From the NCBI GenBank assembly GCA_946411475.1, contig CAMKED010000001.1:1-62035 (forward strand): 62,035 nucleotides of DNA, given 5' to 3'. This DNA is from an uncultured Clostridia bacterium (GTDB lineage Bacteria > Bacillota > Clostridia > Oscillospirales > Oscillospiraceae). A program made the translations under genes and the position numbers. Numbering within the stretch: the stretch's first letter is position 1; each line of letters starts with the position of its first letter. The notes beneath the pieces are model-generated. The model was given only the letters and a program-made list of their open reading frames with translations. It ran no database searches and was not told where the DNA came from. This document shows positions 3,136 through 58,750 of this stretch, one piece after another.

Positions 3136-3230
3136 ATATGAAGTATTTCTGCGAAATATGAAGTATGCCTTGCGGCACATGAAGTATCTCTTTTCGAGAT
3201 ATGAAGTATGTGCGTCAGCAAGTACTTCAT
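3136..3230. repeat. GAAGTAT mini-hairpin module (4 direct units + 1 inverted unit)
   Basis: TGAAGTAT occurs at 3139, 3159, 3180 and 3202, and inverted (TACTTCA) at 3223. Each 12-14-nt spacer is itself a small hairpin (tatttcTGCgaaata, tgccTTGCggca, atctcTTTTCgagat). The last arm contains the comFC stop codon. Confidence 0.9.
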
Positions 3231-3880: not shown

Positions 3881-4040
3881 GGGGCGTCCCCGAAAGGACT
3901 TGCTTCGCTTCGGAGGACGCTGCCCCCTACAAGCGGGTTCCGTACCTGTCATTCTGAGCAAAGCGAAGAATCCGCCCCCGTCTCCTGTTGCCGATTGCCT
4001 AATACCTAATGCCTATTGTCTATCGTCTGTTTCCTATTGC
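3881..4040. repeat. Mosaic repeat block (GC hairpin, GTCATTCTGAGC...GAAGAATCC unit, CTATTGCC-type stutter)
   Basis: The unit gtcattctgagcaaagcgaagaatcc lies at 3948-3973. It is followed by tctcctgttgccgattgcctaatacctaatgcctattgtctatcgtctgtttcctattgcc. The stutter supplies the recD2 stop (cta at 4034-4036). Confidence 0.85.
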
Positions 4041-6805: not shown

Positions 6806-8317
6806 TTAATAATCCTTAGTATTTTCAATAACGATGTGAAGCAGGTTTCGCAGTGCCTGACCGTCAGAGAACAGATACTCTTCCGCTCGATCGGAGCTGT
6901 ATTCCTTCCCCGGCTCGTACAATACCAGACCTTTTTCATACAGGCAGCCCCGGATCCACGCGGCTCCCCGTTTCAAACAGAATTCCATCCATGCTTGTCC
7001 CATGTCCTCGGAATGATCCAGCGGTTTTTCCAATTCCAGTCCCCGGATCGCTTCCTCGAATTGTTCGCAGATCTCAGCGTCCTTGCAGAACTCGCTGTCG
7101 GAACCAGCGTGCGGAAAAGGCAGCACTGCGCTCACGCTCCAGCCGCCGCCGTCCCGATCCAAGAGCTCTGTCTGGACGGTCCCGCCGATTGCCGTGACCC
7201 CAAGCATACCATAGAGAAAGAAAAAGAAAACGGACAGCCCGAAGATTGCAAGGAAGCCTGCCCGCCGCTTTTGCGGGTGCAGCACCTGCGCCATCCGATA
7301 GCGCAGCCCCGAAGCGGAGGCGGAGAGGCAGGTGGTAAAGCCCATGGCCGTTCCGGCGTTGCTGAGCAGCAGACCGGCATAATTTTTGCGTTGTTCTTCT
7401 GTTAATTCGTTTGTGGCCAGCTCGTCGCAGCAGAGCTCCAGATCCTCAGCGGCTTTCCCCAGACCCGGCCAAAGCATGGGAATGAACCAACCTGCCGCGC
7501 AGAGAAAGCCCAGCGTGAATTTCAACCAGTTGTCCTGATGCATCAGATGGATGGCTTCGTGGCGGAAGATCAGCCGCAGCTCCTGCTCGCTGTATTCCCG
7601 CTGGGGCAGAACAAGGCATCGCGTTTTTTCCCACAAGCCGATGACCAAAGGGCAATCCACAGCAGGAGAGCGCAGGACAGACACTTCTTTACTGGGGCTC
7701 ACGTTGTTTTCAATCTCTGCCCGCTTCTTGTTTTCGTCGAAGCAGAGCGCCCTCCAGGTAGATAAAAAGAGATTACGTTCCTGTGCTGACACGGGAACCG
7801 CGTCCCACAAAAGGGCCTTCCGAAAGCGAAGATGGGAGACGAGCTTCCAGATCAGAACGGCGAAGAAGCCTGCCGCCCAAACAAGCAGGGCGATCCACAG
7901 GGCAGAGCGGGGCAGACGCACAACAAACAGCGGAGCATCGGGAGTAAATTTGTGCAGCAGCAGGACCAGAAAAAAATAAAATATCAGATTTGGAAGCAGC
8001 CACAGTGCGGCGCAGCCCCGCGCGGAGATCCGTTTCCGCAGCAGCGGCGTCAGCGCCCAAAGCAGGGCGGAATAAACAAGCGTCGCCGCAAGCATCCGAA
8101 GCAGTTTTGCGAGATAAGAGAAGAACAGCCCTAAAAAGAAAGATAATAAGAGAAGCAAAAAAAACACGTCGGGGAGCGCCTGCGGGTAATAATCCGGCGC
8201 AAAGCGGTTGCGGCTTCGAGAAATAGCGCGAGTGAGCGCAAACGTCATCAGCGTATACGCACCAAGGAGCAGCGCATACAGCAACAGGGAGCCCAGCCGG
8301 GATAAAAGGTCAGTCAT
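6806..8317 (-). CDS. M56 family (BlaR1/MecR1-like) membrane metallopeptidase, no PBP sensor domain
   Basis: 503 aa and multi-TM. The HExxH motif (FRHEAIHLMHQDNW) sits in the typical M56 context. The C-terminal ~150 aa are not penicillin-binding-like. Confidence 0.8.
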   Translation of the reverse strand: MTDLLSRLGSLLLYALLLGAYTLMTFALTRAISRSRNRFAPDYYPQALPDVFFLLLLLSFFLGLFFSYLAKLLRMLAATLVYSALLWALTPLLRKRISARGCAALWLLPNLIFYFFLVLLLHKFTPDAPLFVVRLPRSALWIALLVWAAGFFAVLIWKLVSHLRFRKALLWDAVPVSAQERNLFLSTWRALCFDENKKRAEIENNVSPSKEVSVLRSPAVDCPLVIGLWEKTRCLVLPQREYSEQELRLIFRHEAIHLMHQDNWLKFTLGFLCAAGWFIPMLWPGLGKAAEDLELCCDELATNELTEEQRKNYAGLLLSNAGTAMGFTTCLSASASGLRYRMAQVLHPQKRRAGFLAIFGLSVFFFFLYGMLGVTAIGGTVQTELLDRDGGGWSVSAVLPFPHAGSDSEFCKDAEICEQFEEAIRGLELEKPLDHSEDMGQAWMEFCLKRGAAWIRGCLYEKGLVLYEPGKEYSSDRAEEYLFSDGQALRNLLHIVIENTKDY

Positions 8318-11044: not shown

Positions 11045-11102
11045 CCATGATGTCTGGTGCAGTCTATGATTTACTGCATTGAACTATTCCAAAATTCGCA
11101 GC

Positions 11103-11323
11103 GCCGGAAATCTGCCGGCCAAGTCAAGTCCGTAGTGCCGGTAATCTGCCGGCCAAGTCAAGTCCGTAGTGCCGGTAATCTGCCGGCCAAGTCAAGTCCG
11201 TAGTGCCGGCAATCTGCCGGCCAAGTCAAGTCCGTAGTGCCGGCAATCTGCTGGCCAAGTCAAGTCCGTAGTGCCGGCAATCTGCCGGCCAAGTCAAGTC
11301 CGTAGTGCCGGCAATCTGCCGGC
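11103..11323. repeat. 34-bp tandem repeat, 7 hairpin copies
   Basis: The unit is CTGCCGGCCAAGTCAAGTCCGTAGTGCCGGnAAT. TCTGCC recurs at 11111, 11145, 11179, 11213, 11247, 11281 and 11315 (period exactly 34). The variable position runs A, T, T, C, C, C, C. Each unit carries GCCGGnAATCTGCCGGC. Confidence 0.95.
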
Positions 11324-11339
11324 TGTTTCAGGAGATAAA

Positions 11340-12038
11340 ATGATAAGATTAGATAAATTTCTGTCCGACGCCGGCCTGGCCTCCCGGCGGGAACTGAAAG
11401 ACCTTCTGAAAGCCGGCGCCGTCACGGTCAACGGCAAGCCCGTCACGGACGGGGCTGCCAAGGTAGATCCCGAGGCGGATCGGATCTGCTTCCACGGCGA
11501 GACCGTGGAGGGACCGCGCCGGGTGGTCCTGCTGCTCCATAAGCCGGCGGGCTTTGTGACCTCCACCGAGGATCCCCGGGACCGGACCGTCATGGAGCTG
11601 ATTCCTGCTGCGTACCTGCGGCACAAGGTGGTTCCCGTCGGCCGCCTGGACAAGGAGACCGAGGGCCTGCTGCTGCTCACCAACGACGGCGAGCTGGCGC
11701 ACCGGCTGATCTCCCCGAAGCATGGGGTCGAGAAGCGCTATTACGCCCGCCATGCGGGAACGGCTTCGCCCGAGGACGTCGCGGCGTTTGCCGCGGGCTT
11801 GACGCTCAAGGACGGAAGCGTTTGCCGTCCTGCCGTCCTGCGGCCGCTCGGTCTCGGCGAGAGCGAGATCGTTGTTACCGAGGGCAAATACCACCAGGTC
11901 CGCCGCATGATGGCCTCTCGCGGTCTGCCGGTGGAATACCTTCGCCGCGAGCAGGAGGGAAGCCTGTGCCTGGACGGCCTGGCCCTCGGCGCAGTCCGGG
12001 AGCTGACGGAGGAGGAGATCAAGGCGCTTTGCGAATGA
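11340..12038 (+). CDS. RsuA/RluB family rRNA pseudouridine synthase
   Basis: The ATG at 11340 follows caggagataaa. The translation shows an S4 domain (MIRLDKFLSDAGLASRRELKDLLKAG.VTVNG) and the catalytic motif VGRLDKETEGLLLLTNDGEL. Confidence 0.85.
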   Translation: MIRLDKFLSDAGLASRRELKDLLKAGAVTVNGKPVTDGAAKVDPEADRICFHGETVEGPRRVVLLLHKPAGFVTSTEDPRDRTVMELIPAAYLRHKVVPVGRLDKETEGLLLLTNDGELAHRLISPKHGVEKRYYARHAGTASPEDVAAFAAGLTLKDGSVCRPAVLRPLGLGESEIVVTEGKYHQVRRMMASRGLPVEYLRREQEGSLCLDGLALGAVRELTEEEIKALCE

Positions 12039-12290
12039 AGTATGTGCCTCGCACATATTTGGACGCTGAACTCTGAACCCTGAACTCTACGGAAGCTATT
12101 ACAAACAACAGCCACCCCTCCACCGCCTTGAGGCGGTCCCCCTCCCCTGCAAGCAGGGGAGGTCATGCCCTGAACTCTACGGAAGCTATTACAAACAACA
12201 GCCACCCCTCCACCGCCTTGAGGCGGTCCCCCTCCCCTGCAAGCAGGGGAGGTCATGCCCTGAACTCTGAACCCACCCTGATCTCTGTTC
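12033..12290. repeat. GAAGTAT unit, TCAGRGT stutter and two identical tandem copies of a 90-nt element
   Basis: Copies 12081-12170 and 12171-12260 are identical 90/90: tgaactctacggaagctattacaaacaacagccacccctccaccgccttgaggcggtccccctcccctgcaagcaggggaggtcatgccc. A third copy lies inverted at 46751-46840. Confidence 0.95.
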
Positions 12291-13616: not shown

Positions 13617-13664
13617 GTAGGGACAAGCATTGCTTGTCCGCGGACGAGCGCTGCTCGTCCCTAC
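13617..13664. repeat. Inverted doublet of GTAGGGAC palindromes (REPIN-like)
   Basis: The sequence is GTAGGGACAAGCATTGCTTGTCC-gc-GGACGAGCGCTGCTCGTCCCTAC. It begins 3 nt after the stop of the CdaR-like gene. Confidence 0.9.
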
Positions 13665-19390: not shown

Positions 19391-19475
19391 GGCTGTAGGG
19401 ACGGCACCCTGCCGTCCGTGGTTCAGAGTTCAGGGTTCCGGGTTCAGAGCCCGCAGCGCGGGCAATCTGCCCGCC
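19387..19475. repeat. GTAG heads, GTAGGGAC palindrome, TCAGRGT stutter, GCGGGCAATCTGCCCGC hairpin
   Basis: The sequence is cCGTAGggctGTAGGGACGGCAcccTGCCGTCC, then gtggttcagagttcagggttccgggttcagag, then gcgggcaatctgcccgcc. The stop TAG of the S41 gene (19388-19390) is part of the first GTAG. Confidence 0.85.
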
Positions 19476-19624
19476 CGGTTTGCCGGAGGAAAACAATCAG
19501 ATAACAGATAATCGTTTCGGTATTGCTGCGCGATGAATTGTAGTTCTATTTGCCAATTCGTTGAATTGGAAAAAAACGACAATTCTCAATTCTCACCGCT
19601 CAATTCTAAATACAGGAGCTGTCA

Positions 19625-20799: not shown

Positions 20800-21014
20800 G
20801 TAGGGGCGCACAGTGTGCGCCACGGGAGGAAGTGCGTTATCGAGACACCACCTCATCCGTCATCGGGCTTCCGTGAGACGCCCGCTGCCACCAGCGCTTA
20901 ATGTTGCCAGTTGCGTCAGCATAGCTGCCGCACTGGCGATGAAATCCACAACAGTCCCCCGGACTGTTGTGTCCCCTCAAGGGGAAGGCTTTGTAGGGGC
21001 GCACAGTGTGCGCC
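20800..21014. repeat. Mosaic block between greA and lysS
   Basis: GTAGGGGCGCACAGTGTGCGCC occurs at 20800 and again at 20993 (direct). ccacctcatccgtcatcgggcttccgtgagacgcccgctgccacc lies at 20848-20892, the hairpin CACAACAGTCCcccGGACTGTTGTG at 20947-20971, and CCCCTCAAGGGGAAGG at 20972-20989. Confidence 0.9.
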
Positions 21015-26856: not shown

Positions 26857-28662
26857 TCAGTTCATATGGAAGGCGTCTTTCAGGAATGCTGCGGTCTTTT
26901 CCAGGGTAGCTTCCTCAAATGGACTGTCCAGGCCAACCTCTTCAAGAACCGCGGCGAATTTCTTTCCGTGTGTGCGATTCAGCAGACGGCAGAAGGCGTC
27001 GACGCCTGCGCCGGGATTCTCCGCTTCCAGCCGGCAGATCTGCAAAGCAGTGACCGCAGAGTCGGAATAGCTGATGACGTAGCCGGGGTAAGCAAAGAAA
27101 TGCAGGTAGGCGCTCCAATAGTTGCTTTTAAAACGCACGCCGGAAACACCGGAAATGCCGAAATCCTTCATACACTGCCCGAATATGGCGTCGAGATGTT
27201 CCACGGTCAGCTCCTCCGGCGCAAGCGCGTAAACCTGCAGCTCAAAGTCCGCATAGGCACCCTCCTGAAGGATGGCGTAAACCAGTAGATCCGACACAGT
27301 CGCTCGGAGGTTCGAAGCCCGCGCATCATCCGAGAACGGATCGGCATAGGCAAACGCCAGATACTGCATCGCCTGAGAATAGGTCTCTCCGGTTTCATGG
27401 TCCCCGATACTGCCGTAATTGTAATAATAATCGGTAAAATGTCCGAATTCATGGAACAGCGTGATGACCAGATCTTTTGAAGAGGGATCTACGAAAAGAA
27501 AGGGCGCCTCATAGTTCCCGAGATAGCTTGTATAGCCGGTGCCCATTTTGTTCCGCGAGTAAGAGACGTCATACAGCTCGTGGCCGGACATGAACCGGAA
27601 GGCCTCCCAAATGGGGCCGCCCATCCGTTCCGCGGCAGCGGAAAGGTAATCCACAGACTTTGACTCATCCCAGTAGGAATAGTACGAATACGGACCGGCT
27701 ATGTTGGGGTTTTTCATCAGCGGAGCAAGGAAGTCTTTGACGCAGGCCAGATACTCACGCGCCTGAGCGGGTGTATAATCCCGCTTGAAGCTGCAGGCAT
27801 AGCTGTAATCCATGTAGTTCTCATAGCCCTTTGCTTCGGCAATCTTTTGGCGGAGCTTGACAAGCTCGATAAAAATCTGACCGGAGGCCTCGTGGTTCTT
27901 CTCAATATCCTGGGGGTTGGTATAATCGGCTGTCGACGCCAGCGCATAGTATTGGGCAAGCAGATCGTTTTCCTGCTTCAGCAGGTCGAGGTAGCTCTCG
28001 TCTCCGACGTTGAAATTGTCATAGTCCAGGAAGAATCCTTCGCCGAAATACGCCTTTTCCAGCTCGTCCCGGCAGGGAGAGGCGGCGAAGGCGGCATAGA
28101 GCGCGTTTTCCTTTTCCTCTGCAATATCTCCTTGCTCCTCGCAGTAATCGTATTCATCGGCAAAATAGCTGTCATTCATGTCCATGCTATAATGGAAGTA
28201 CGCCAGGGAACACATCGTTGTGAAGTTGCTGATTTGCACGGCAATCGGGTAATAGTCGGTCAAAAGCGCTTCCGCGTCGCTGCACCCGGGGACCTTCTCC
28301 GTGAGCGCCTCAAGATCGGCAATCAGCTTATCCGCGTCCGGGCGGATGTACTCCATCTCGGAAAGCTTCGGGATCGTCAGGGGCTCCTCCGGCAGGAATC
28401 TCAGATCCCCGCCATTCTGCATTCGAACCGGAATTTCAAAGTCGAACGTGGATTCTTCGGTCTCCCGGACGGTAGCTTCCTGCGAGACGGTCGAAGAATC
28501 CGCCGGGACTGTTTCGGAGGAGCCGGCGGGCTGAGAACTGCTTTTTTCTGTGATTCGCGCAGCGGTGGTGCTTGTGCCGGCGGGAGCGTCCGCGCAGCCT
28601 GCAAAGAGACTGAGCAGGAGGATTACGGACAGTAGCAGGGCAAAAATTCGTACGGGTTTCAT
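26857..28662 (-). CDS. Secreted lipoprotein zinc metallopeptidase, tandem paralog
   Basis: 601 aa with the same lipobox (LLSLFAGC) and the motif LFHEFGHFTDYY. Confidence 0.6.
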   Translation of the reverse strand: MKPVRIFALLLSVILLLSLFAGCADAPAGTSTTAARITEKSSSQPAGSSETVPADSSTVSQEATVRETEESTFDFEIPVRMQNGGDLRFLPEEPLTIPKLSEMEYIRPDADKLIADLEALTEKVPGCSDAEALLTDYYPIAVQISNFTTMCSLAYFHYSMDMNDSYFADEYDYCEEQGDIAEEKENALYAAFAASPCRDELEKAYFGEGFFLDYDNFNVGDESYLDLLKQENDLLAQYYALASTADYTNPQDIEKNHEASGQIFIELVKLRQKIAEAKGYENYMDYSYACSFKRDYTPAQAREYLACVKDFLAPLMKNPNIAGPYSYYSYWDESKSVDYLSAAAERMGGPIWEAFRFMSGHELYDVSYSRNKMGTGYTSYLGNYEAPFLFVDPSSKDLVITLFHEFGHFTDYYYNYGSIGDHETGETYSQAMQYLAFAYADPFSDDARASNLRATVSDLLVYAILQEGAYADFELQVYALAPEELTVEHLDAIFGQCMKDFGISGVSGVRFKSNYWSAYLHFFAYPGYVISYSDSAVTALQICRLEAENPGAGVDAFCRLLNRTHGKKFAAVLEEVGLDSPFEEATLEKTAAFLKDAFHMN

Positions 28663-28884
28663 GTTGAACCTCTCCTTTTTGTTGTTTGATCGCGAGAATC
28701 GGGATCATCTGTCCGTTAATGTCAAATATTAAGGAATTGTTACACAATTTTATCACATTTTTTAAAGCAATGCAATATTATTTTCGGCGTCATCGGATCG
28801 TTCTATGCAGAAAAGCTTCCCGGTTTTTCTTGCTTTTTTTCGGCCGCTATGGTATGATAGGAAAGATGGAAAGGAGGGGACGAC

Positions 28885-30504
28885 ATGGAAAACAGACCGG
28901 CGTCTTTCTGGCGGAGCCGGCTTCCCGGGCCGGTGCTTGCGGCGGCGGTGGGCTGTTTTTTTGCGGGCTTCTTTGCCCATGTGTTTGCCTTTACGAACAT
29001 CCTTCCAAACTCAGACGGCGTCTCCCGGGTGTTTGACGCGCAGCAGATGACCGTCTCCGGACGCTGGTTTTTGCACTACGCCTCCGCCTGGAACGGATAT
29101 CTCCAGGCGCCCGCGGTCATTGGCTTTTTTGCCCTTCTGTTTTTGTCTGTTTCCGCCGGCCTGACGGCGTCTGTACTCCGGCTGCGGAGCCTTGGCCTGA
29201 GCGCCCTGTGCGGCGCGCTGCTGTCCGTCTTCCCGTCGGTCGCCTACACCTTCCTCTATCTGTTCACAGCCTCCGCCTACTGCTTCGGCATCCTGCTGGC
29301 AGTGTTGTCGGTCTGGCTGGTTTCCCGTTACAAATACGGTTTTCTGTTTGCCGCGCCGGTGCTGGCCTGCGCCGTGGGCACCTACCAGGCCTATCTTGCC
29401 GTGGCGGCCGCCCTGTCCCTGATCTGCGTGCTGCTCTATGCCCTGGAGGGCGAGCGGAGCGCCGGGGAGATCTTCCGCTGCGCTCTCAAGTATCTGACGT
29501 TCCTTGTGCTCGGCGTCGGCCTGTATGCGCTGATTCTGTGGGTCTTCCTGCAAGTCAAGGACCTGAGCCTGCTGGACTACAAGGGCATATCGTCCTTCGG
29601 GAAGGAGCTGCGCCTCGGGACGCTTCTGGAATCGATCGGGGCTGCCTATCGGAACTTCCTGCGCTACTTCTTTGTTCCGCGCAGCTTTGCCAACTACACC
29701 ACGCCCGCAGCAGTTGCGGGCAACGCCCTGCTCCTGCTGACGGCGCTCTGGGCCTTTGTCCGTGTCGTGCGCCGTGTGGGCTTCCGGCGGCGGCCCGGGG
29801 CTTTTGCGCTGACGCTGCTCCTCTGCGCGCTGCTTCCGCTGGCCCTGAATCTGACGGTCCTGATGGGAGAAGCCATGCCGATCATGCGCTATTCGCTGGT
29901 GCTGACCTACGTGCTGGCCCTGAGCCTGGTGGACCGCGCCGCGCCGGAGGAAAGCAAAAAACCTGCGGGCAAGAAAAAGCAGAAGCCCACGAAACGGACG
30001 CCCTGGCTGCACGGAGCAGCCTGCTGCGCGGCGGGGCTGCTGCTGATCCTCAGCTTTCAGATCGACAATCTGGCCTACACCGTCTCTGCGCAGGCGCACC
30101 GGGCCACGGAATCCTTTGCGACCCGTCTGGTGGAGCGGGTGGAATCCACCCCCGGTTATCGAAACGGGATGGAGGTCGTCATCATCGGCGGCTTCCCGTC
30201 AAACGTGTATTACAGTGAGATCGAAGCCTTTTCTCTTGTGGAGGATTACAGCAATCTTTCCAGCTCGGTCATCCCGCTGAACAAGCACGTCTACTATTAT
30301 CTTAACGACTGGATGAACGTGCCCTGGAAGACCCCGAGTGAGGAAAAGCTGCAAGCGGTGTCCGACAGCGCACAGTTTCAGGCCATGCCCCTCTATCCGG
30401 ACGACGGCAGCGTCGTGATCGCGGACGGAAGGGTCATCGTCAAGCTGGCCTCCCGATATACACCGAAAAAGGCGTACGAAATCGCCTATGAAAACCGAAG
30501 ATAA
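28885..30504 (+). CDS. Polytopic membrane protein, glucosyltransferase GtrII-like family (tentative)
   Basis: 539 aa with about 10 TM segments and a soluble C-terminal domain. The N-terminus (...FAFTNILPNSDGVSRVF...VSGRWFL) resembles Glucos_trans_II proteins from memory only. Confidence 0.5.
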   Translation: MENRPASFWRSRLPGPVLAAAVGCFFAGFFAHVFAFTNILPNSDGVSRVFDAQQMTVSGRWFLHYASAWNGYLQAPAVIGFFALLFLSVSAGLTASVLRLRSLGLSALCGALLSVFPSVAYTFLYLFTASAYCFGILLAVLSVWLVSRYKYGFLFAAPVLACAVGTYQAYLAVAAALSLICVLLYALEGERSAGEIFRCALKYLTFLVLGVGLYALILWVFLQVKDLSLLDYKGISSFGKELRLGTLLESIGAAYRNFLRYFFVPRSFANYTTPAAVAGNALLLLTALWAFVRVVRRVGFRRRPGAFALTLLLCALLPLALNLTVLMGEAMPIMRYSLVLTYVLALSLVDRAAPEESKKPAGKKKQKPTKRTPWLHGAACCAAGLLLILSFQIDNLAYTVSAQAHRATESFATRLVERVESTPGYRNGMEVVIIGGFPSNVYYSEIEAFSLVEDYSNLSSSVIPLNKHVYYYLNDWMNVPWKTPSEEKLQAVSDSAQFQAMPLYPDDGSVVIADGRVIVKLASRYTPKKAYEIAYENRR

Positions 30505-30553
30505 AGCGAACTGCCTGCGGGCAGTCGGCGCATAAGAAAGGAATCATACGAAA

Positions 30554-30778
30554 ATGGACATTCATGAACGCTTTGTGCTCCAGGACTGCCCCCATTGCGG
30601 CGGCGCAGGTATGTTGGAGGAAGAGAACGGCTGGTGCGTCTACGCTGTCTGTATGGACTGTGGCTGCCAGACCGCGCCGTTTGAATATCGCACCCCCGCC
30701 GAGCGGGAGAAGGCCGCCGAAACGGCAGCCATGCTCTGGAACGTCGGCAAAGTGATCCGCCAGGAGAACGGCGAATAA
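30554..30778 (+). CDS. Small zinc-ribbon protein, Lar (restriction alleviation) family-like
   Basis: 74 aa. CPHCGG...CMDCGC together with C-terminal ...AAMLWN resembles Lar-family proteins. The assignment is tentative. Confidence 0.45.
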   Translation: MDIHERFVLQDCPHCGGAGMLEEENGWCVYAVCMDCGCQTAPFEYRTPAEREKAAETAAMLWNVGKVIRQENGE

Positions 30779-30809
30779 CGAGTGAGAAATAAAAAAGGAG
30801 GTTAATTCC

Positions 30810-32141
30810 ATGAAAACCAATACTGCGGTCAAAGGTCTCATTGATTTTCTGAGCAAGAGCCCCTCTGCGTTCCATGCAGTCGAGAATTTGCGGCAAATGC
30901 TGCTGGCGGACGGTTTTGCTGAGCTGCCCGAGAGCCGTCGTTGGGACGTTAAGCCCGGCGGTCGCTATTTCACCACCCGCAACGGCTCCAGCATCCTGGC
31001 CTTCCGCGTGGGCACCGAGCTCTCCGAGCCCTGCTTCACTCTGACTGCCTCTCATTCCGATTCTCCCTGCTTCAAGATCAAGGAGAACGCTGAGCTGCGC
31101 GTCCGCGACAAGTACGTCCAGCTCAATACCGAGGGCTACGGCGGCATGATCTGCTCCACCTGGATGGACCGGCCGCTCGGCGTGGCGGGCCGCGTCCTGG
31201 TGCGGGTCAAGACGGAGGCAGGGGAGCGCTACGAGACCCGGCTTCTCGACTTTGACCGCGATCTGGTCCTGATCCCCAATATGGCCATCCACATGAACCG
31301 CAAGATCAACGACGGCTATACCTTCAACAGGCAGATCGACATGGTCCCGCTCTTCGGCTCCGGCAAGCTGAAAAAGGGTGCGTTCAAGGCCATGATTGCC
31401 AAGGAACTCGGCGTGGCCGAGGCGGATATCCTGGGCTCCGATCTCTTCCTGTATAACCGCATGGCGCCCACCGTCTGGGGTGCGGAAAATGAATACGTCT
31501 CCGCCGGCCGTCTGGACGATCTGGAATGCGCCTACGGCACGTTGCGCGGCTTCCTGCAGGGCAAGAACGAGAAGACCATCCAGGTCTGGTGCTGCTTTGA
31601 CAACGAAGAAGTCGGCTCCGGCACCAAGCAGGGCGCAGATTCCACCATGCTGGAGGACGTGCTGCGCCGCATTGCCAACGGCCTGGGTTTCGACGATGAG
31701 GACTACCGCTGCATGACCGCCCGGAGCTTCATGCTCTCCTGCGACAATGCCCATGCGGTCCACCCCAACCACCCGGAGAAGACCGACGCCACCAACTGCA
31801 CGTTCATGAACGAGGGCATCGTAGTCAAGGCCCATGCCGGACAGAAGTACACCTCCGACGCAGTCTCCGTGGCCCTGTTCCGCGGCGTTTGCGAGAAGGC
31901 CGGCGTGCCGGTCCAGTTCTTTGCCAACCGTTCCGACGAGAACGGCGGCTCTACGCTGGGCAATATCGCGATGGCGCACGTGTCCATGAATACCGTCGAT
32001 CTCGGTCTGCCCCAGCTTGCCATGCACAGCAGCTACGAGACCGCGGGCGTGCAGGATCTGAAATACCTCGAAACTGCCAGCGCGGCCTTCTACGGCACGC
32101 ACTTTACGGCAGACGGCAAGGGCGGCTTCGCGGCTGAATGA
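30810..32141 (+). CDS. M18 family aminopeptidase
   Basis: 443 aa. The translation shows ...LIDFLSKSPSAFHAVENL..., ...TASHSDSPCFKIKE... and ...DNEEVGS... Confidence 0.88.
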   Translation: MKTNTAVKGLIDFLSKSPSAFHAVENLRQMLLADGFAELPESRRWDVKPGGRYFTTRNGSSILAFRVGTELSEPCFTLTASHSDSPCFKIKENAELRVRDKYVQLNTEGYGGMICSTWMDRPLGVAGRVLVRVKTEAGERYETRLLDFDRDLVLIPNMAIHMNRKINDGYTFNRQIDMVPLFGSGKLKKGAFKAMIAKELGVAEADILGSDLFLYNRMAPTVWGAENEYVSAGRLDDLECAYGTLRGFLQGKNEKTIQVWCCFDNEEVGSGTKQGADSTMLEDVLRRIANGLGFDDEDYRCMTARSFMLSCDNAHAVHPNHPEKTDATNCTFMNEGIVVKAHAGQKYTSDAVSVALFRGVCEKAGVPVQFFANRSDENGGSTLGNIAMAHVSMNTVDLGLPQLAMHSSYETAGVQDLKYLETASAAFYGTHFTADGKGGFAAE

Positions 32142-32323
32142 AGTATTTGCTTGCGCAAATATGAAGTATGCTTCGCATTTGAAGTGTGCTCCGCACATGA
32201 AGTATGGCTGCGCCATATCTCTCGCGCGTCCAAATATGCGCGGCAGCGCATACTTCATATCCGCGCCGGCGGGTACTTCATATTCCGCAGGAATACTTCA
32301 TATCGCCGCCAGGCGATACTTCA
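32139..32323. repeat. Inverted doublet of GAAGTAT mini-hairpin modules (4 forward + 4 reverse units)
   Basis: TGAAGTAT/TGAAGTGT occurs at 32139, 32162, 32180 and 32198, and ATACTTCA/GTACTTCA at 32250, 32273, 32293 and 32316. The first unit contains the stop TGA of the M18 gene. Confidence 0.9.
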
Positions 32324-32344
32324 TCCAACCACAGGAGGCTGCCG

Positions 32345-33145
32345 ATGTTCCAAAAGCTTACTGATACGTCATATGCCGTCTCCGCCTGGTCCGGCGGGAC
32401 GACGACGCAGCTTGCAATTTTTCCGCCGGAGGCAAAGTATGCCGACCGGGACTTCCTTTGGCGGGTCAGCTCTGCCACGGTGGATCTGGAGGAATCGGAC
32501 TTCACCGCCCTGCCGGACTATGACCGCCTGATCGCCACCCTGCAGGGGGAGATCGTACTGACCCACAACGGCGGCGCGCCGATAAAGCTTCACCCTTTCG
32601 AGGTCCACGCCTTTTCCGGTGCGGACGCGACGCACAGCGTCGGCTGCTGCACGGACTTCAACCTGATGCTCCGCCGCGGCCGCGCCGCCGGAACCATGGA
32701 GGCTTTGCGTCTGACGGACGCACCGACCCGCCTCTCCGTAGGGACAAGCATTGCTTGTCCGAAAACCTCCCCTGCAAGCAGGGGAGGAGGAGCGCCGCAG
32801 CGCGGCGCGGAGGAGGGGTGCCTCCCGCCCGAGGTACCAACTGCCCCCGCTGTAGGGACAAGCATTGCTTGTCCGCCCAATGCCTCTGAAGAGACGCTGC
32901 TTCTCTACTGCGCAGAGGGTTCCTGCACCGCAACCGTAGGGGCGGTTGAAACCTCCCCTGCAAGCAGGGGAGGTGGAGCGCCGCAGCGCGGCGCGGAGGA
33001 GGGGTGTTGCCCGCAACCCGCAGCGGCTATCCCCGTCTCCCTCCGCGCAGGCGAAACCCTCCTGCTGACTGCCCCCGCAGCGCTGACCTTCACCGGCGAG
33101 GCCACCCTCATGCTCTGCCGGATCCGGACTGACAACAAAACGTAA
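32345..33145 (+). CDS. HutD/Ves family protein carrying two in-frame repeat-derived insertions
   Basis: The ATG at 32345 follows caggagg. It shows HutD-like sequence (SAWSGGTTTQLAIFPPEAKYADRDFLWRVSSATVDLEESDFTALPDYDRLIATLQGE). At 266 aa it is longer than the ~185 aa usual for the family. The extra ~80 aa map exactly onto repeat units at 32736-33010. Confidence 0.7.
   Translation: MFQKLTDTSYAVSAWSGGTTTQLAIFPPEAKYADRDFLWRVSSATVDLEESDFTALPDYDRLIATLQGEIVLTHNGGAPIKLHPFEVHAFSGADATHSVGCCTDFNLMLRRGRAAGTMEALRLTDAPTRLSVGTSIACPKTSPASRGGGAPQRGAEEGCLPPEVPTAPAVGTSIACPPNASEETLLLYCAEGSCTATVGAVETSPASRGGGAPQRGAEEGCCPQPAAAIPVSLRAGETLLLTAPAALTFTGEATLMLCRIRTDNKT
32736..33010. repeat. Intragenic repeat units inside the hutD-like ORF
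   Basis: GTAGGGACAAGCATTGCTTGTCC occurs at 32738 and 32852. CCTCCCCTGCAAGCAGGGGAGG + GAGCGCCGCAGCGCGGCGCGGAGGAGGGGTG occurs at 32767-32820 and 32952-33006. A GTAGGGGCGG head lies at 32936. Confidence 0.9.
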
Positions 33146-36109: not shown

Positions 36110-36422
36110 GCCTTCCCCTTGAGGGGAAGGTGCCCCAGTGCGCACACTGGGGCGGATGAGGTGGTGCCCCAGCAACGCAATTGAGAGTTGAGAATTGAGA
36201 ATTGTCGGTGTTTTGCAGATTGCCATCTGCAAAACGAAAAACGATGAAGCCGACAGCGACGCGAAGACAGAGCCAGCGCTACAGGCCGTAGGGACGACTC
36301 GGAGCCGTCCGCATATTCCTTTTTTCATCGTTCAAATGGCAATTTGAACGATACCATCACTTTCAACGTTCCATTTTCAACTTTCAACTGTTTTTCCCCT
36401 GGCACACACTGTGCGCCCCTAC
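36110..36422. repeat. Large mosaic repeat block between the M28 and aldo/keto reductase genes
   Basis: The block holds GCCTTCCCCTTGAGGGGAAGG + TGCCCCAGTGCGCACACTGGGGC + GGATGAGGTGG (36110-36164) and a TTGAGAR stutter (36181-36204). It also holds the AT hairpins GTTTTGCAGATtgccATCTGCAAAAC (36210-36235) and TCGTTCAAATggcaATTTGAACGA (36328-36351). GTAGGGACGACTCGGAGCCGTCC lies at 36288, a TTTCAAC stutter at 36361-36390, and an inverted GTAG palindrome at 36401-36422. Confidence 0.9.
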
Positions 36423-46659: not shown

Positions 46660-46675
46660 AGGTTGCCTTCCTCGT

Positions 46676-46893
46676 TTTGGGTTCAGAGTTCAGAGTCCGT
46701 AGGGACGAGCATTGCTCGTCCGTGGTTCAGAGTTCAGGGTTCAGAGTTCAGGGTATGACCTCCCCTGCTTGCAGGGGAGGGGGACCGCCTCAAGGCGGTG
46801 GAGGGGTGGCTGTTGTATGTAATTGCTTCCGTAGGGTTCAGAGTTCAGGGTTCAGAGTTCAGAGTCCGTCCCCTGTTGCCGATTGCCTTGTCA
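46676..46893. repeat. Mosaic block: TCAGRGT stutter, GTAGGGAC palindrome, inverted 90-nt element, CTGTTGCC stutter
   Basis: gggttcagagttcagagtcc is followed by GTAGGGACGAGCATTGCTCGTCC (46699-46721) and another stutter. The inverted copy of the 12081-12170 element lies at 46751-46840 (86/90 identical by eye). A further stutter and ccctgttgccgattgccttgtcacc follow. Confidence 0.9.
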
Positions 46894-48094: not shown

Positions 48095-48387
48095 TGAAGT
48101 ATTGCCTGGAGGCAATATGAAGTATTCCTTCGGAATATGAAGGATCTCTTTTGGAGAGATATGAAGTATGTGCGACGCGCATATCTGGAAGCAAGGGAAG
48201 GTGTCTCGTGGAAAGTCGTAGGGATGAGCAGTGCTCGTCCGGCATTCGTACCCAGTCGGATCGCCCCGAGAGCGGACAAGCAGTGCTTGTCCCTACATCC
48301 GGAAAGATATGGCGCAGCTATACTTCATAAGCAAAGTGTCTTCATACGGCGAAGCCGTACTTCACATTTGCGTCAGCAAATACTTCA
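48095..48387. repeat. Composite palindrome: 4 GAAGTAT units, a GTAGGGA REPIN-like doublet, then 4 inverted units
   Basis: TGAAGTAT/TGAAGGAT occurs at 48095, 48118, 48138 and 48162. GTAGGGATGAGCAGTGCTCGTCC (48218-48240) and the inverted GGACAAGCAGTGCTTGTCCCTAC (48274-48296) sit in the centre. ATACTTCA-type units follow at 48320, 48338 (degenerate), 48357 and 48380. Confidence 0.9.
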
Positions 48388-50272: not shown

Positions 50273-50328
50273 GGCCAAAAAAGCTGTTGCGGCGCGCTTC
50301 GGCAGCGGCGCGGGACCCGCTTCCCCGC

Positions 50329-50506
50329 CTGTCATTCTGAACGAAGTGAAGAATCCGTACCCCCGCGGCAAGCCGCAGGCGTAAATGAATCCTGAAAAAC
50401 GAAAAACTGTAAAATGAAGAATGGGGGTATTCTCAAATTGCCATTTGAGAATGAATTGAAATAGAGACGAGGGACGCGGATTCTTCGCGTTGCTCAGAAT
50501 GACAGG
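50329..50506. repeat. MITE-like element bounded by inverted GTCATTCTGA...GAAGAATCCG units
   Basis: The left end is cctgtcattctgaacgaagtgaagaatccg (50329-50358). The right end is cggattcttcgcgttgctcagaatgacagg (50477-50506). The interior holds a GC hairpin CCGCGGCAAGCCGCAGG and the AT hairpin ATTCTCAAATtgccATTTGAGAAT (50429-50452). Confidence 0.8.
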
Positions 50507-50554
50507 CACTGAAACGCCCGTGGGTTTTATTATTTTTCAAAAATGAAAAAGCTC

Positions 50555-53074: not shown

Positions 53075-53120
53075 AACAGTTCCTCTTTGTTCGATTATAG
53101 CAAAATGCTATTCAGTGTCA

Positions 53121-53326
53121 GAATAGTTGAAAGTTGAAAATGGAAAGGTATCTATTCAGTCGCACCCGCTCCGTAGTGGCCGCGCACCTGCGCGGCCATG
53201 GCGCGTATCGCTTTTTTCTGTGGATTTATGGCCGCGCAGGTGCGCGGCCACTACGACCCTGCTGAACAGATACATGGCAATTTGAAAAACTCCTCCATTT
53301 TCAACTCTCAACGTTCATTTTTCAAC
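53121..53326. repeat. TTGAAAR stutters flanking a long REPIN-like inverted doublet
   Basis: gaatagttgaaagttgaaaatggaaagg leads into GTATCTATTCAG...GTAGTGGCCGCGCAccTGCGCGGCCAT (53173-53199). A 28-nt spacer separates it from ATGGCCGCGCAggTGCGCGGCCACTAC (53228-53254) and ...CTGAACAGATAC. The block ends with ccattttcaactctcaacgttcatttttcaactc. Confidence 0.9.
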
Positions 53327-57064: not shown

Positions 57065-57970
57065 TCAGTTTCCTCCCGTGACGGTCGGCGCTGCGGTCGT
57101 GTTGACGACGGGAACCTGATCCTTATTCTCGGAAGCAGTGCCGCCTTCTACGTTCAGCTCAGCCAGATTCAGGTTGATTCCCCAATCTGCGGCGTGTGCG
57201 GCGCAGTAGGAGCAGATCGCGGTACGGCCGGACTCAATGGCCTCGGTGACGGAGCCCTTGTAGACGGAGCTGGATTCACGGATATAGGGGCAATCGACCG
57301 CAACCTGCTCAGCGTCCGGGTCGCCGTTATACTTCAGGTGATACTTGTGTCCGAACTGGGTCCAGTAGACGTCGCCGTTGATCTGGGACTCAGCCTCGTC
57401 CTTCTGCTCGGCGGAGATGGGATGATAGTCCGCGGAGGCGGCTCCGGTGATCAGCAGCGCCACGGCTGCAATGATCGCGGCGATGGTCTTGGTCTTCTTG
57501 TCCAGCTTGTCGCTCTTCAGCAGCAGAACGATCAGCGGGATGAAGCAGATGCAAGCCATGATGACGCCCAGCTCGTTCCAGAGATAGAACAGGAACTTGC
57601 CGCGCTTCTCGCTCATGGGCTTGATGTGGTTGGCCTTCTTCCAAAGCTGTGCCGCAGTGATGCAGGCGGCCATATCCAGGACCACGAAACCGATGAACGC
57701 AATCCACATGTTGGTGTCGCCGTTATGCGTGAAGCGGATGACGAAGTTCTTGGTGATCGCCATGATGGCAAAGACCTCACAGACGATCGCAACGATCCAG
57801 AGAAGCACTGCGCCGATGCGCAGGCCGACGGTGCTGCCGCCGGTGGGCTTGTTGGGCGTGATGACGGTCTGCGGCTTTCTGGCCGCGGCGGGCTTCTTGG
57901 CGGGCTCGGCCGCCTTCTTGGCAGGCTCCGCAGCCTTCTTTTCCGTATTGCGGACGATCTTTTCTGCCAT
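57065..57970 (-). CDS. Hypothetical membrane protein (KKAAEPA repeats, 4 TM, Cys-containing C-terminal domain)
   Basis: A 301-aa ORF in an operon-like arrangement with the DUF937 gene (1-nt gap). No family was recognised. Confidence 0.5.
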   Translation of the reverse strand: MAEKIVRNTEKKAAEPAKKAAEPAKKPAAARKPQTVITPNKPTGGSTVGLRIGAVLLWIVAIVCEVFAIMAITKNFVIRFTHNGDTNMWIAFIGFVVLDMAACITAAQLWKKANHIKPMSEKRGKFLFYLWNELGVIMACICFIPLIVLLLKSDKLDKKTKTIAAIIAAVALLITGAASADYHPISAEQKDEAESQINGDVYWTQFGHKYHLKYNGDPDAEQVAVDCPYIRESSSVYKGSVTEAIESGRTAICSYCAAHAADWGINLNLAELNVEGGTASENKDQVPVVNTTAAPTVTGGN

Positions 57971-58654: not shown

Positions 58655-58750
58655 TTTCAGTTGAAAGTTGAAAATGGAAAGTTGAAAATGAATGTGTTTT
58701 GCAAATTGCAATTTGCAAAACTCCAAAATTCTCCATTCTCACTTCTCAAT
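58655..58750. repeat. TTGAAAR stutter, AT hairpin, TTCTCA stutter
   Basis: tttcagttgaaagttgaaaatggaaagttgaaaatgaa is followed by GTTTTGCAAATtgcaATTTGCAAAAC (58696-58721). Then comes ccaaaattctccattctcacttctcaatt, which contains the cinA stop at 58739-58741. Confidence 0.85.

Follow-up and report, generated by a model that had tools for sequence, protein, structure and literature searches.

Ordered arrays of GAAG-tagged mini-hairpins in rumen Oscillospiraceae: a probable REP/BIME-like mosaic repeat

Results

Two facing hairpin arrays between an M18 aminopeptidase gene and a hutD-like gene

We examined a 62,035-nucleotide stretch of DNA from an uncultured Clostridia bacterium of the family Oscillospiraceae (contig CAMKED010000001.1, positions 1 to 62,035), referred to here as the window. 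Between the genes for an M18 aminopeptidase (30810-32141) and a hutD-like protein lies a compact repeat element at 32139-32323, which an initial annotation had read as four forward mini-hairpin units followed by four reverse units. The sequence confirms this reading. The forward units begin with TGAAGTAT, with one variant TGAAGTGT, and the reverse units finish with ATACTTCA, with one variant GTACTTCA. The parts of the element and the adjoining gene signals are as follows.

32139-32141, forward strand: TGA stop codon of the M18 aminopeptidase gene, identical with the first three bases of the element
32139-32219, forward strand: arm 1, four forward units in the order A-B-C-D
32139-32161, forward strand: unit A of arm 1, TGAAG+TATTTGCTTGCGCAAATA
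32162-32179, forward strand: unit B of arm 1
32180-32197, forward strand: unit C of arm 1, with linker TGAAGTGT (one mismatch)
32198-32219, forward strand: unit D of arm 1, TGAAG+TATGGCTGCGCCATATC
32220-32229: minimal core TCTCGCGCGT, separating the two arms
32230-32323, reverse strand: arm 2, four reverse units in the order D'-C'-B'-A'
32230-32257, reverse strand: unit D' of arm 2, CCAAATATGCGCGGCAGCGCATACTTCA
32258-32280, reverse strand: unit C' of arm 2, ending in GTACTTCA (at 32273; one mismatch)
32281-32300, reverse strand: unit B' of arm 2
32301-32323, reverse strand: unit A' of arm 2
32333-32338, forward strand: AGGAGG ribosome-binding site of the hutD-like gene
32345-32347, forward strand: ATG of the hutD-like gene

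The gap between the end of the element and the ribosome-binding site of the hutD-like gene is thus 9 nt. Each module consists of a GAAG tag, contained in the 5-nt linker TGAAG, followed directly by a perfect palindrome of 5-7 bp with a 3-4-nt loop. An arm is made of three to five differing modules that stand head to tail in a fixed order, at a spacing of 18-23 bp, and two differing arms face each other across a core. Cores take in other small repeats, among them repetitive extragenic palindromes (REPs) with a GTAG tag. The outermost 8-9 nt of the element are perfect inverted repeats. Whereas the initial annotation described an inverted doublet of one ~95-nt unit, the arms are different ordered arrays (A-B-C-D versus A'-B'-C'-D') and not one inverted unit.

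The units are covarying mini-hairpins joined by a TGAAG linker

The exact motif TGAAGTAT occurs 18 times in the window, counting both strands, against an expectation of 0.59 ± 0.83 from dinucleotide-preserving shuffles; none of 100 shuffles reached 18. Sixteen of the 18 matches fall within four intergenic loci (3139-3229, 12036-12062, 32139-32323 and 48095-48387), and the remaining two, at 57329 and 60179, are isolated inside open reading frames (ORFs) and look like chance occurrences. A covariance model, a check proposed with the initial annotation, was built from 22 units and run unfiltered over the window; it matched the same four loci only. Its matches within 32139-32323 lie in arm 2, at 32296-32323 and 32253-32280.

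When the window and related loci are taken together, at least five perfect pairs run inward from both ends in 54 of 96 inter-linker segments, a property for which the random expectation is estimated at ~0.1% (0.25^5), and 326 of 348 stem positions form Watson-Crick pairs. For the 18-nt unit class, 95.5% of cells are paired and 27 cells are changed on both sides, which 0 of 500 shuffles match; slid controls of this class pair at only 19-55%. The covarying stem types are TTGC/GCAA, CGCC/GGCG, CCGC/GCGG, CGGC/GCCG and TGCC/GGCA. The covariation comes from this handful of unit types and does not reflect many independent events. The earlier claim that stems covary with pairing kept is borne out by these counts, but the companion claim of a fixed GAAGTAT spacer is not. 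Because the stretch between successive TGAAG motifs pairs from its first base to its last, TAT belongs to the stem, and (A)TGAAG alone is the invariant single-stranded linker. The same conclusion follows from two relatives (L122 and L123, below) in which the stem-base TAT/ATA became C../..G while TGAAG was kept.

Among 71 units, 23 have a 7-bp stem, 22 have a 6-bp stem and the others have a shorter one; loops are 3-4 nt. On the TGAAG strand, the loop is T..C in 54 of 71 units and the closing pair is C-G in 66 of 71; the CTTCA strand therefore carries C[GNA]G or C[GNNA]G. We take such loops to be those of a class of unusually stable DNA mini-hairpins, for example d(GCGAAGC), on which Hirao and Yoshizawa reportedly worked. 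Folded as RNA, the region reaches -90.1 kcal/mol on the forward strand (z -6.7 relative to shuffles) and -99.6 kcal/mol on the reverse strand (z -8.6); folded as DNA, its z is -6.4. Pairing between forward and reverse linkers is a feature of the minimum-energy fold.

The order of units is conserved among rumen genomes

Family loci were collected by a scan of species-representative genomes, which places the family in at least six metagenome-assembled genomes (MAGs) of rumen Oscillospiraceae and Clostridia: Tb.RUG.182, Tb.RUG.97, RGIG8286, RUG11311, SRR8387720_bin.46 and SRR8387721_bin.10. Most scan matches were unrelated period-7 GAAGTAT microsatellites or tandem repeats (in cyanobacteria, Bacteroidota and others) and were set aside after inspection. 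The unit order is identical in 15 full elements from the window and the six MAGs, and also in one metagenome contig; A-B-C-D is the order in L017, L040, L066, L067, L068, L073, L084, L089, L093 and L121. Conservation of unit order across genomes excludes random tandem expansion, and the initial annotation was correct in treating the arrays as copies of a single, ordered composite element. The consensus parts are as follows.

Arm 1: A, TATTTGC-N4-GCAAATA; B, variable, e.g. TAYGGCTGCGCCRTA; C, ACGCTTCGCTTA or TGTGCTCCGCACA; D, TATGGCTGCGCCATATTTGACA
Core between the arms: 10-270 nt across elements
Arm 2, from the outside inward: A', TATCGCC-N4-GGCGATA; B', TATTCC-N3-GGAATA; C', TATCTCC..GGAGATA or TATCCGC..GCGGATA; D', TATGCGC..GCGCATATTGYGG

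As had been noticed at the outset, the innermost unit recurs at 12036, 32230-32257 (inverted) and 48162, and the unit at 3181 resembles that at 48140. A further likeness proposed between 3141 and 32141 is probably wrong, TATTTCTGCGAAATA being a variant of the B' unit TATTCCTGCGGAATA rather than of TATTTGC..GCAAATA, the A unit. Some cores contain a second linker family of like design, TGAATTG followed by mini-hairpins, forward and then reverse (CAATTCA). Units on the TGAATTG linker stand at L040:4510-4575 (equal to the L119 core) and at L098:1000-1130.

We found no described family that matches this element, in agreement with the initial annotation. Rfam at its gathering thresholds gave 0 matches over the whole window, and a literature search found no account of the GAAGTAT motif or of REP-like repeats in Oscillospiraceae or Firmicutes. 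A blastn search of both full copies against plasmids and phages gave no match, the array pattern occurred 0 times in viral contigs, and none of 17 elements has a coding core.

Relatives of the M18/hutD site were obtained from a metagenome scan with the M18 peptidase, and are given here with their identity to the window.

L119/L120 (sequence equal to L040 of Tb.RUG.182), 93% amino acid identity: units match, including the odd TGAAGTGT linker; core ~70 nt longer
L121, 93% by tblastn: element at the orthologous site with a different core and partly different units
L122 and L123, 88% amino acid identity: stem-base TAT/ATA changed to C../..G on both sides (GC-shifted), TGAAG retained
L118, 94% amino acid identity: element absent; AATGCAA heptamers there (L118:3615-3645)
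L124-L133, 75-80% amino acid identity: spacers short and empty

Other small repeats, ~80-110 nt in all, occupy the core position in relatives. The L067 copy at lepA-hemW differs from that of the window in having five arm-2 units instead of four and a wholly different core. Comparison of the window with L119 at M18/hutD gives 64.5% identity at fourfold sites and 87-100% in the arms (60-column windows); the corresponding values at lepA-hemW are 63-68% and ~82%. Locus-specific oddities are common to orthologues, and these comparisons point to conservation of orthologous copies rather than to new insertions, while whole units and cores turn over. No direct target-site duplication was found at 15 copies or in the comparison of filled with empty sites; the flanks extend the inverted repeat by 1-4 purines. 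Contig L001 (Logan DRR868766, another sample) is 99.2% identical to window positions 27810-32166 and stops 28 nt into the element.

Other copies in the window

The remaining loci comprise a full second copy, an internally deleted copy and a solo unit.

48095-48188, forward strand: arm 2 of the full second copy, which lies in the opposite orientation with arm 2 forward
48095-48117, 48118-48137, 48138-48161 and 48162-48188, forward strand: its units A', B', C' (TGAAGGAT) and D'
48189-48305: its core, which holds an inverted GTAG REP doublet, GTAGGGATGAGCAGTGCTCGTCC at 48218-48240 and GGACAAGCAGTGCTTGTCCCTAC at 48274-48296
48306-48387, reverse strand: its arm 1, reversed
48306-48327, 48328-48344, 48345-48364 and 48365-48387, reverse strand: its units D, C, B and A
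3139-3229, forward strand: third copy, internally deleted, between the comF-like gene and mreB
12036-12062, forward strand: solo D' unit TGAAGTATGTGCCTCGCACATATTTGG, a weak covariance-model match (9.1 bits)

The second copy ends 4 nt from the lepA stop codon. The third copy has three arm-2 units followed by a hybrid unit that begins as the left half of D' and continues as the right half of A (TATGTGC|GTCAGCAAGTACTTCA). The TGA of the solo D' unit is itself the stop codon of a pseudouridine synthase gene, and CTGAACY heptamers come next. The density is therefore four loci per 62 kb, all of them intergenic, with head-to-tail arrays in head-to-head pairs.

Gene context and transcription

The large copies in the window separate co-directional housekeeping genes: comF-like from mreB, the M18 aminopeptidase gene from hutD, and lepA from hemW. 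The element takes up the spacer from the stop codon onward and leaves ~10-60 nt ahead of the next start, and all examined loci of the family are intergenic. At five independent loci (32139-32141; 3227-3229 on the reverse strand; 12036-12038; L066; L084), a gene takes its stop codon from the first TGA of the element. Arm 1 lies toward the upstream stop codon and arm 2 toward the downstream ribosome-binding site at six independent co-directional loci, versus one (L017) with the reverse arrangement; copies also lie between divergent or convergent genes (L068, L073 and L089). The hutD gene is preceded by a strong AGGAGG at filled sites, whereas at empty sites the spacers are short, with a weak Shine-Dalgarno (SD) sequence or none. 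Promoter and terminator scans inside the element gave nothing above shuffles, and no promoter-like site was found between the flanking genes; read-through transcription of the element within an operon is therefore likely. A reading of ATGAAGTAT as a mini-ORF was dropped, the frames being unconserved because unit lengths vary.

A RAYT and classical GTAG REPs in the clade

A tblastn search with E. coli RayT against 354 kb of family loci gave one ORF, L017:58-522 of Tb.RUG.182, which encodes a REP-associated tyrosine transposase (RAYT) in the same 8-kb locus as an array at 7427-7624. The protein is 38% identical to E. coli RayT and has the HUH motif (as HVH), the catalytic Tyr, W94, Q95 and R104; the W/Q/R residues contact GTAG in E. 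coli RayT (PMC6006769). Its gene lies upstream of gyrA and is flanked by GTAGTGGCCGCGCACCTGCGCGGCCAT, a REP also present at window positions 53172-53255. Homologues that are 79, 60 and 55% identical all lie between gyrB and gyrA, with flanking GTAG REPs whose stems are lineage-specific, and a homologue at 44% identity, located elsewhere, is also flanked by GTAG REPs. Homologues of this RAYT have been named RayT by JGI. No RAYT was found within the 62-kb window. Placement between gyrB and gyrA is seen in relatives with proteins 55-96% identical (L017:58-522; L199-L202), and this conserved position suggests that the RAYT is vertically inherited and domesticated.

In an unbiased scan for the 5' tags of perfect hairpins, GTAG and GAAG came top in the related family loci, and in the window GTAG (13) was followed by CTCC (7) and, in third place, GAAG (5). 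Neither GTAG nor GAAG hairpin tags occur in 68 kb of element-free relatives (75-80% amino acid identity). The GTAG REPs fall into classes with differing covarying stems, for example GTAGGGACAAGCATTGCTTGTCC, GTAGGGGCGCACAGTGTGCGCC, GTAGTGGCCGCGCACCTGCGCGGCCAT and GTAGTGCCGGCAATCTGCCGGCCA. They are found in the window at 13618, 32739, 32853, 46700 and 54185 (forward strand), at 48274-48296 (inverted), at 20992 and 36392, at 53172-53199 and 53228-53255, and at 19395, 19453 and 58226. Seven head-to-tail copies of (C)GTAGTGCCGGCAATCTGCCGGCCA + AGTCAAGTC, with a period of 34, occupy 11098-11330 directly upstream of the pseudouridine synthase gene, whose true start is probably the ATG at 11341, not 11271.

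The hutD-like ORF downstream of the element (32345-33145) also holds in-frame GTAG REPs and palindromes (window repeats 32730-33020; also L118, L119 and L121). Its product has 192-203 amino acids in REP-free relatives and 266-320 in the clade of the window, and its Pfam HutD match covers only residues 9-132. The in-frame inserts encode a recurrent peptide, SVGTSIACP, and also SERSEAESKNP. These palindromes recall the Rickettsia palindromic elements inside genes.

Other small repeats in the window

Tandem heptamer runs (GTTCAGR, GTTGAAA, AATTGAG) occupy many spacers, often beside GTAG REPs, and are found at 46665-46865, 19412-19450, 12066-12090 (reverse complement), 36333-36390, 53113-53140, 58658-58715, 19567-19605 and 36179-36217. 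An exact 90-nt tandem duplication (12078-12167 and 12168-12257) is made of heptamers with CCTCCCCTGCAAGCAGGGGAGG and CCGCCTTGAGGCGG hairpins, and an inverted copy of the 12078-12257 composite, 93-96% complementary, lies 34 kb away at 46737-46861. A palindrome family, AGCCTTCCCCTCAAGGGGAAGGCT, in part followed by CCCCAGTGCGCACACTGGGG, occurs at 20966, 36108, 38907, 55227, 60985 and 61089, with some AGCCTTCCCCTCAAGGGGAAGGCT copies at or within the ends of called ORFs. The comF-like and lepA ORFs both carry the repeat CCTGTCATTCTGAGCRAAGCGAAGAATCCGC at the 5' end (3938-3982, 50318-50357 and 50469-50513). About 100 N-terminal codons of the lepA ORF may be repeat rather than gene, the Pfam match beginning at residue 110.

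Discussion

A REP/BIME-like repeat in a new form

Among known systems, the element is most like REPs, bacterial interspersed mosaic elements (BIMEs) and REP doublets forming hairpins (REPINs), in a new form; the general category is familiar and the function is what we infer. It does not stand alone but belongs in the REP/BIME world, because the genome is full of GTAG REPs and the clade encodes a RAYT. We think it probable, on balance, that 32139-32323 is a copy of a lineage-specific, non-coding, interspersed mosaic repeat of the REP/BIME/REPIN kind with a GAAG tag. An HUH/Y1 enzyme, either the resident RAYT or a relative of it, would generate and rearrange copies by acting on DNA hairpins in single-stranded form, with slippage and recombination between identical linkers contributing. 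The folded, active strand would be the CTTCA strand, with its mostly C[GNA]G or C[GNNA]G loops. Once fixed between co-directional genes, the element would be transcribed within the operon, and in the mRNA its stacked, stable stem-loops would buffer or partition the expression of the two cistrons, by analogy with E. coli REP/BIME sequences. In this arrangement, the outer edge of the element would provide the stop codon TGA, and the next ribosome-binding site would usually follow closely on arm 2.

The likeness to the REP/BIME sequences and RAYTs of E. coli, Pseudomonas and Stenotrophomonas extends to GC-rich extragenic palindromes with a tetranucleotide tag at 0 nt (PMC3733652, PMC6006769), to single, head-to-tail and head-to-head occurrence, and to mosaics with other motifs. 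Both kinds of repeat adjoin stop codons in operons and lack a target duplication, and the host clade has a RAYT and GTAG REPs, the latter nested inside these elements. Extragenic clusters in tandem and inverted arrangements, which at high copy number mark REP/BIME repeats, are seen in the four loci per 62 kb, and a RAYT is encoded in a host genome (Tb.RUG.182, L017). The differences are a GAAG tag, stems of 5-7 bp, C[GNA]G/C[GNNA]G loops on the opposite strand, differing units in a fixed order with TGAAG as the sole spacer, arrays that do not flank a RAYT gene, and a host from a Clostridia lineage; a survey of GTAG/CGTC repeats makes no mention of Firmicutes or Clostridia (PMC3733652). By definition, REPs carry GTAG or GTGG 0-2 nt 5' of a hairpin whose basal stem, 7-20 nt long, is fully paired and whose loop has 2-5 nt (PMC6006769 after PMC3733652). 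Here, GAAG stands at 0 nt in all units and the true GTAG REPs of the genome are separate; the 3-4-nt loops fit the definition, and the stems have 7 bp in 23 of 71 units and fewer in the rest. REPs of 5 bp are known from Marinomonas and Thauera (PMC8266576, PMC3733652).

REPINs (Bertels and Rainey 2011, PMC3116915) likewise have inverted halves with a short spacer, are predicted to fold as a whole into a long imperfect hairpin, and are confined to one lineage; here, the RAYT of the lineage occupies the same gyrB-gyrA position in the loci examined. A REPIN consists of two inverted copies of one REP, however, whereas the arms of this element differ, each half being made of three to five distinct hairpins and complementary to the other only at the linkers. 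Because unit numbers and spacings differ between the halves, it is the local hairpins that are conserved and not the long hairpin. Pneumococcal BOX elements have the modular form boxA-boxB(n)-boxC, with modules of 45-60 nt, and are intergenic, co-transcribed and structured, with no transposase of their own. They share with our element a modular build and a variable number of an internal tandem module, but there is no sequence likeness, and BOX lacks perfect mini-palindromes on 5-nt linkers and inverted multi-unit arms.

Several observations weigh against the interpretation that we favor. The tag is GAAG, neither GTAG nor GTGG, and its likeness to GTAG may be coincidental should activity reside on the CTTCA strand. 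The resident RAYT retains the GTAG-contact residues, while the E. coli enzyme accepts no change of the tag (PMC8266576). TGAAG arrays flank none of the five RAYT loci (L017, L199/L200, L201, L202 and L203/L204) and no TGAAGTAT lies near them, whereas in REPtrons the REP copies flank their cognate RAYT gene; GTAG REPs, or none, are what adjoins the RAYT at these five loci. No excision or insertion event was seen between strains of a single species. The bias of arm orientation (6/7) is suggestive and not significant, the mismatches on the mRNA strand (8 G.T versus 5 A.C) do not distinguish RNA-level from DNA-level selection, and family membership rests on ~350 kb of sequence rather than on whole genomes. 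A link to the resident RAYT in particular is possible, but we think it less likely than not. A RAYT from Marinomonas, whose REPs have 5 bp, recognizes chiefly tag positions A3G4, which GAAG retains; the E. coli RAYT tolerates no change of GTAG (PMC8266576).

Alternative explanations

The element could instead be a cis-acting RNA device in operons, that is, a stabilizer, an RNase processing site or a translation decoupler, with stacked hairpins and AU-rich UGAAG linkers as the active parts and with copies kept by selection on this role rather than by mobility. We regard this account, which is compatible with a REP/BIME-like origin, as somewhat unlikely. It is consistent with arms conserved well above fourfold sites, with a predicted structure that is very stable on both strands, and with placement in spacers of co-directional housekeeping genes that run from a stop codon to the ribosome-binding site downstream and contain nothing resembling a promoter; the strong AGGAGG before hutD at filled sites and the weak or missing SD at empty sites agree with it as well. 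The mRNA strand, however, has no excess of G.U-compatible mismatches (8 vs 5), copies occur in both orientations to transcription (L017) and beside divergent or convergent neighbors, and the loop bias is closer to the GNA triloops of DNA mini-hairpins than to the GNRA loops of RNA. Nor would a regulatory role explain why the element is dispersed among unrelated operons, exchanges its cores and is restricted in lineage.

A second account would make the TGAAG mini-hairpins a mobile module in their own right. An HUH-type enzyme, working on the CTTCA strand, would add cassettes singly beside an existing TGAAG; each addition would restore the target, and arrays would grow cassette-like. The enzyme would be a novel one or the resident RAYT with a relaxed reading of the tag, arrays would meet head to head with a single-stranded apex serving as a landing pad for GTAG REPs, and the element would be self-neutralizing, with a TGA stop at one end and a ribosome-binding site just past the other. 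We consider this unlikely.

We find it quite improbable that the arrays are phased double-stranded sites at which a nucleoid-associated protein, gyrase or another chromosomal protein binds to organize the chromosome. Such sites would accord with a conserved 8-11-bp motif repeated at about two helical turns and with the gyrB-gyrA position of the RAYT of the clade; in E. coli, BIME-2 is a gyrase-binding element. Proteins that bind REP/BIME elements include IHF, Pol I and gyrase (PMC6006769). The 18-23-bp spacing, however, does not keep to one helix face, the palindromic covarying spacers are not accounted for, and no candidate protein is known.

Descent from a DDE transposon with multi-site ends, as a miniature inverted-repeat transposable element (MITE) whose transposase-binding sites would be the ATATGAAGTAT repeats ~21 bp apart, is very improbable: the three to five direct sites per arm at an 18-23-bp period, the inverted arms, the terminal 8-9-nt perfect inverted repeats, the size of 170-400 nt and the varying occupancy of orthologous sites all suit it, but no copy has a target-site duplication (the flanks merely lengthen the inverted repeat), no coding core or parent was found (17 elements; plasmids, phages and viral contigs, whole genomes not having been searched), and the palindromic inter-site segments, covarying stems and loop bias would go unexplained. 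Multi-site transposon ends, as in the TnsB sites of Tn7, L1-L3/R1-R3 of Mu and the 19-bp repeats of Tn402, similarly have three to four direct ~20-bp sites in each of two inverted ends; unlike them, the element lacks a transposase and a target duplication, and its spacers are palindromic and covarying. Readings as cre, Chi, uptake-sequence or iteron sites were set aside on general grounds, motif, spacing or copy pattern being a misfit.

Implications

REP, BIME and REPIN sequences have been studied mostly in proteobacteria, and the assembly of their clusters is still unsettled. Here, a Clostridia lineage known only from metagenomes has together a gyrB-gyrA RAYT, several classes of GTAG REPs, some of them in frame within a gene, and a second, far more compact palindrome system that is GAAG-tagged, strictly ordered and strongly conserved. 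Such repeats break short-read assemblies, as where contig L001 ends at window position 32166, and inflate the ORFs of MAGs. For REP specialists, the notable points are the compact GAAG-tagged ordered arrays, their conservation, and the gyrB-gyrA RAYT in Clostridia. If the GAAG arrays are not RAYT substrates, another enzyme or a purely RNA-level function would be implied. If they are, the limits on REP tag and size would be wider than at present, and the arrays would provide a natural case of array assembly.

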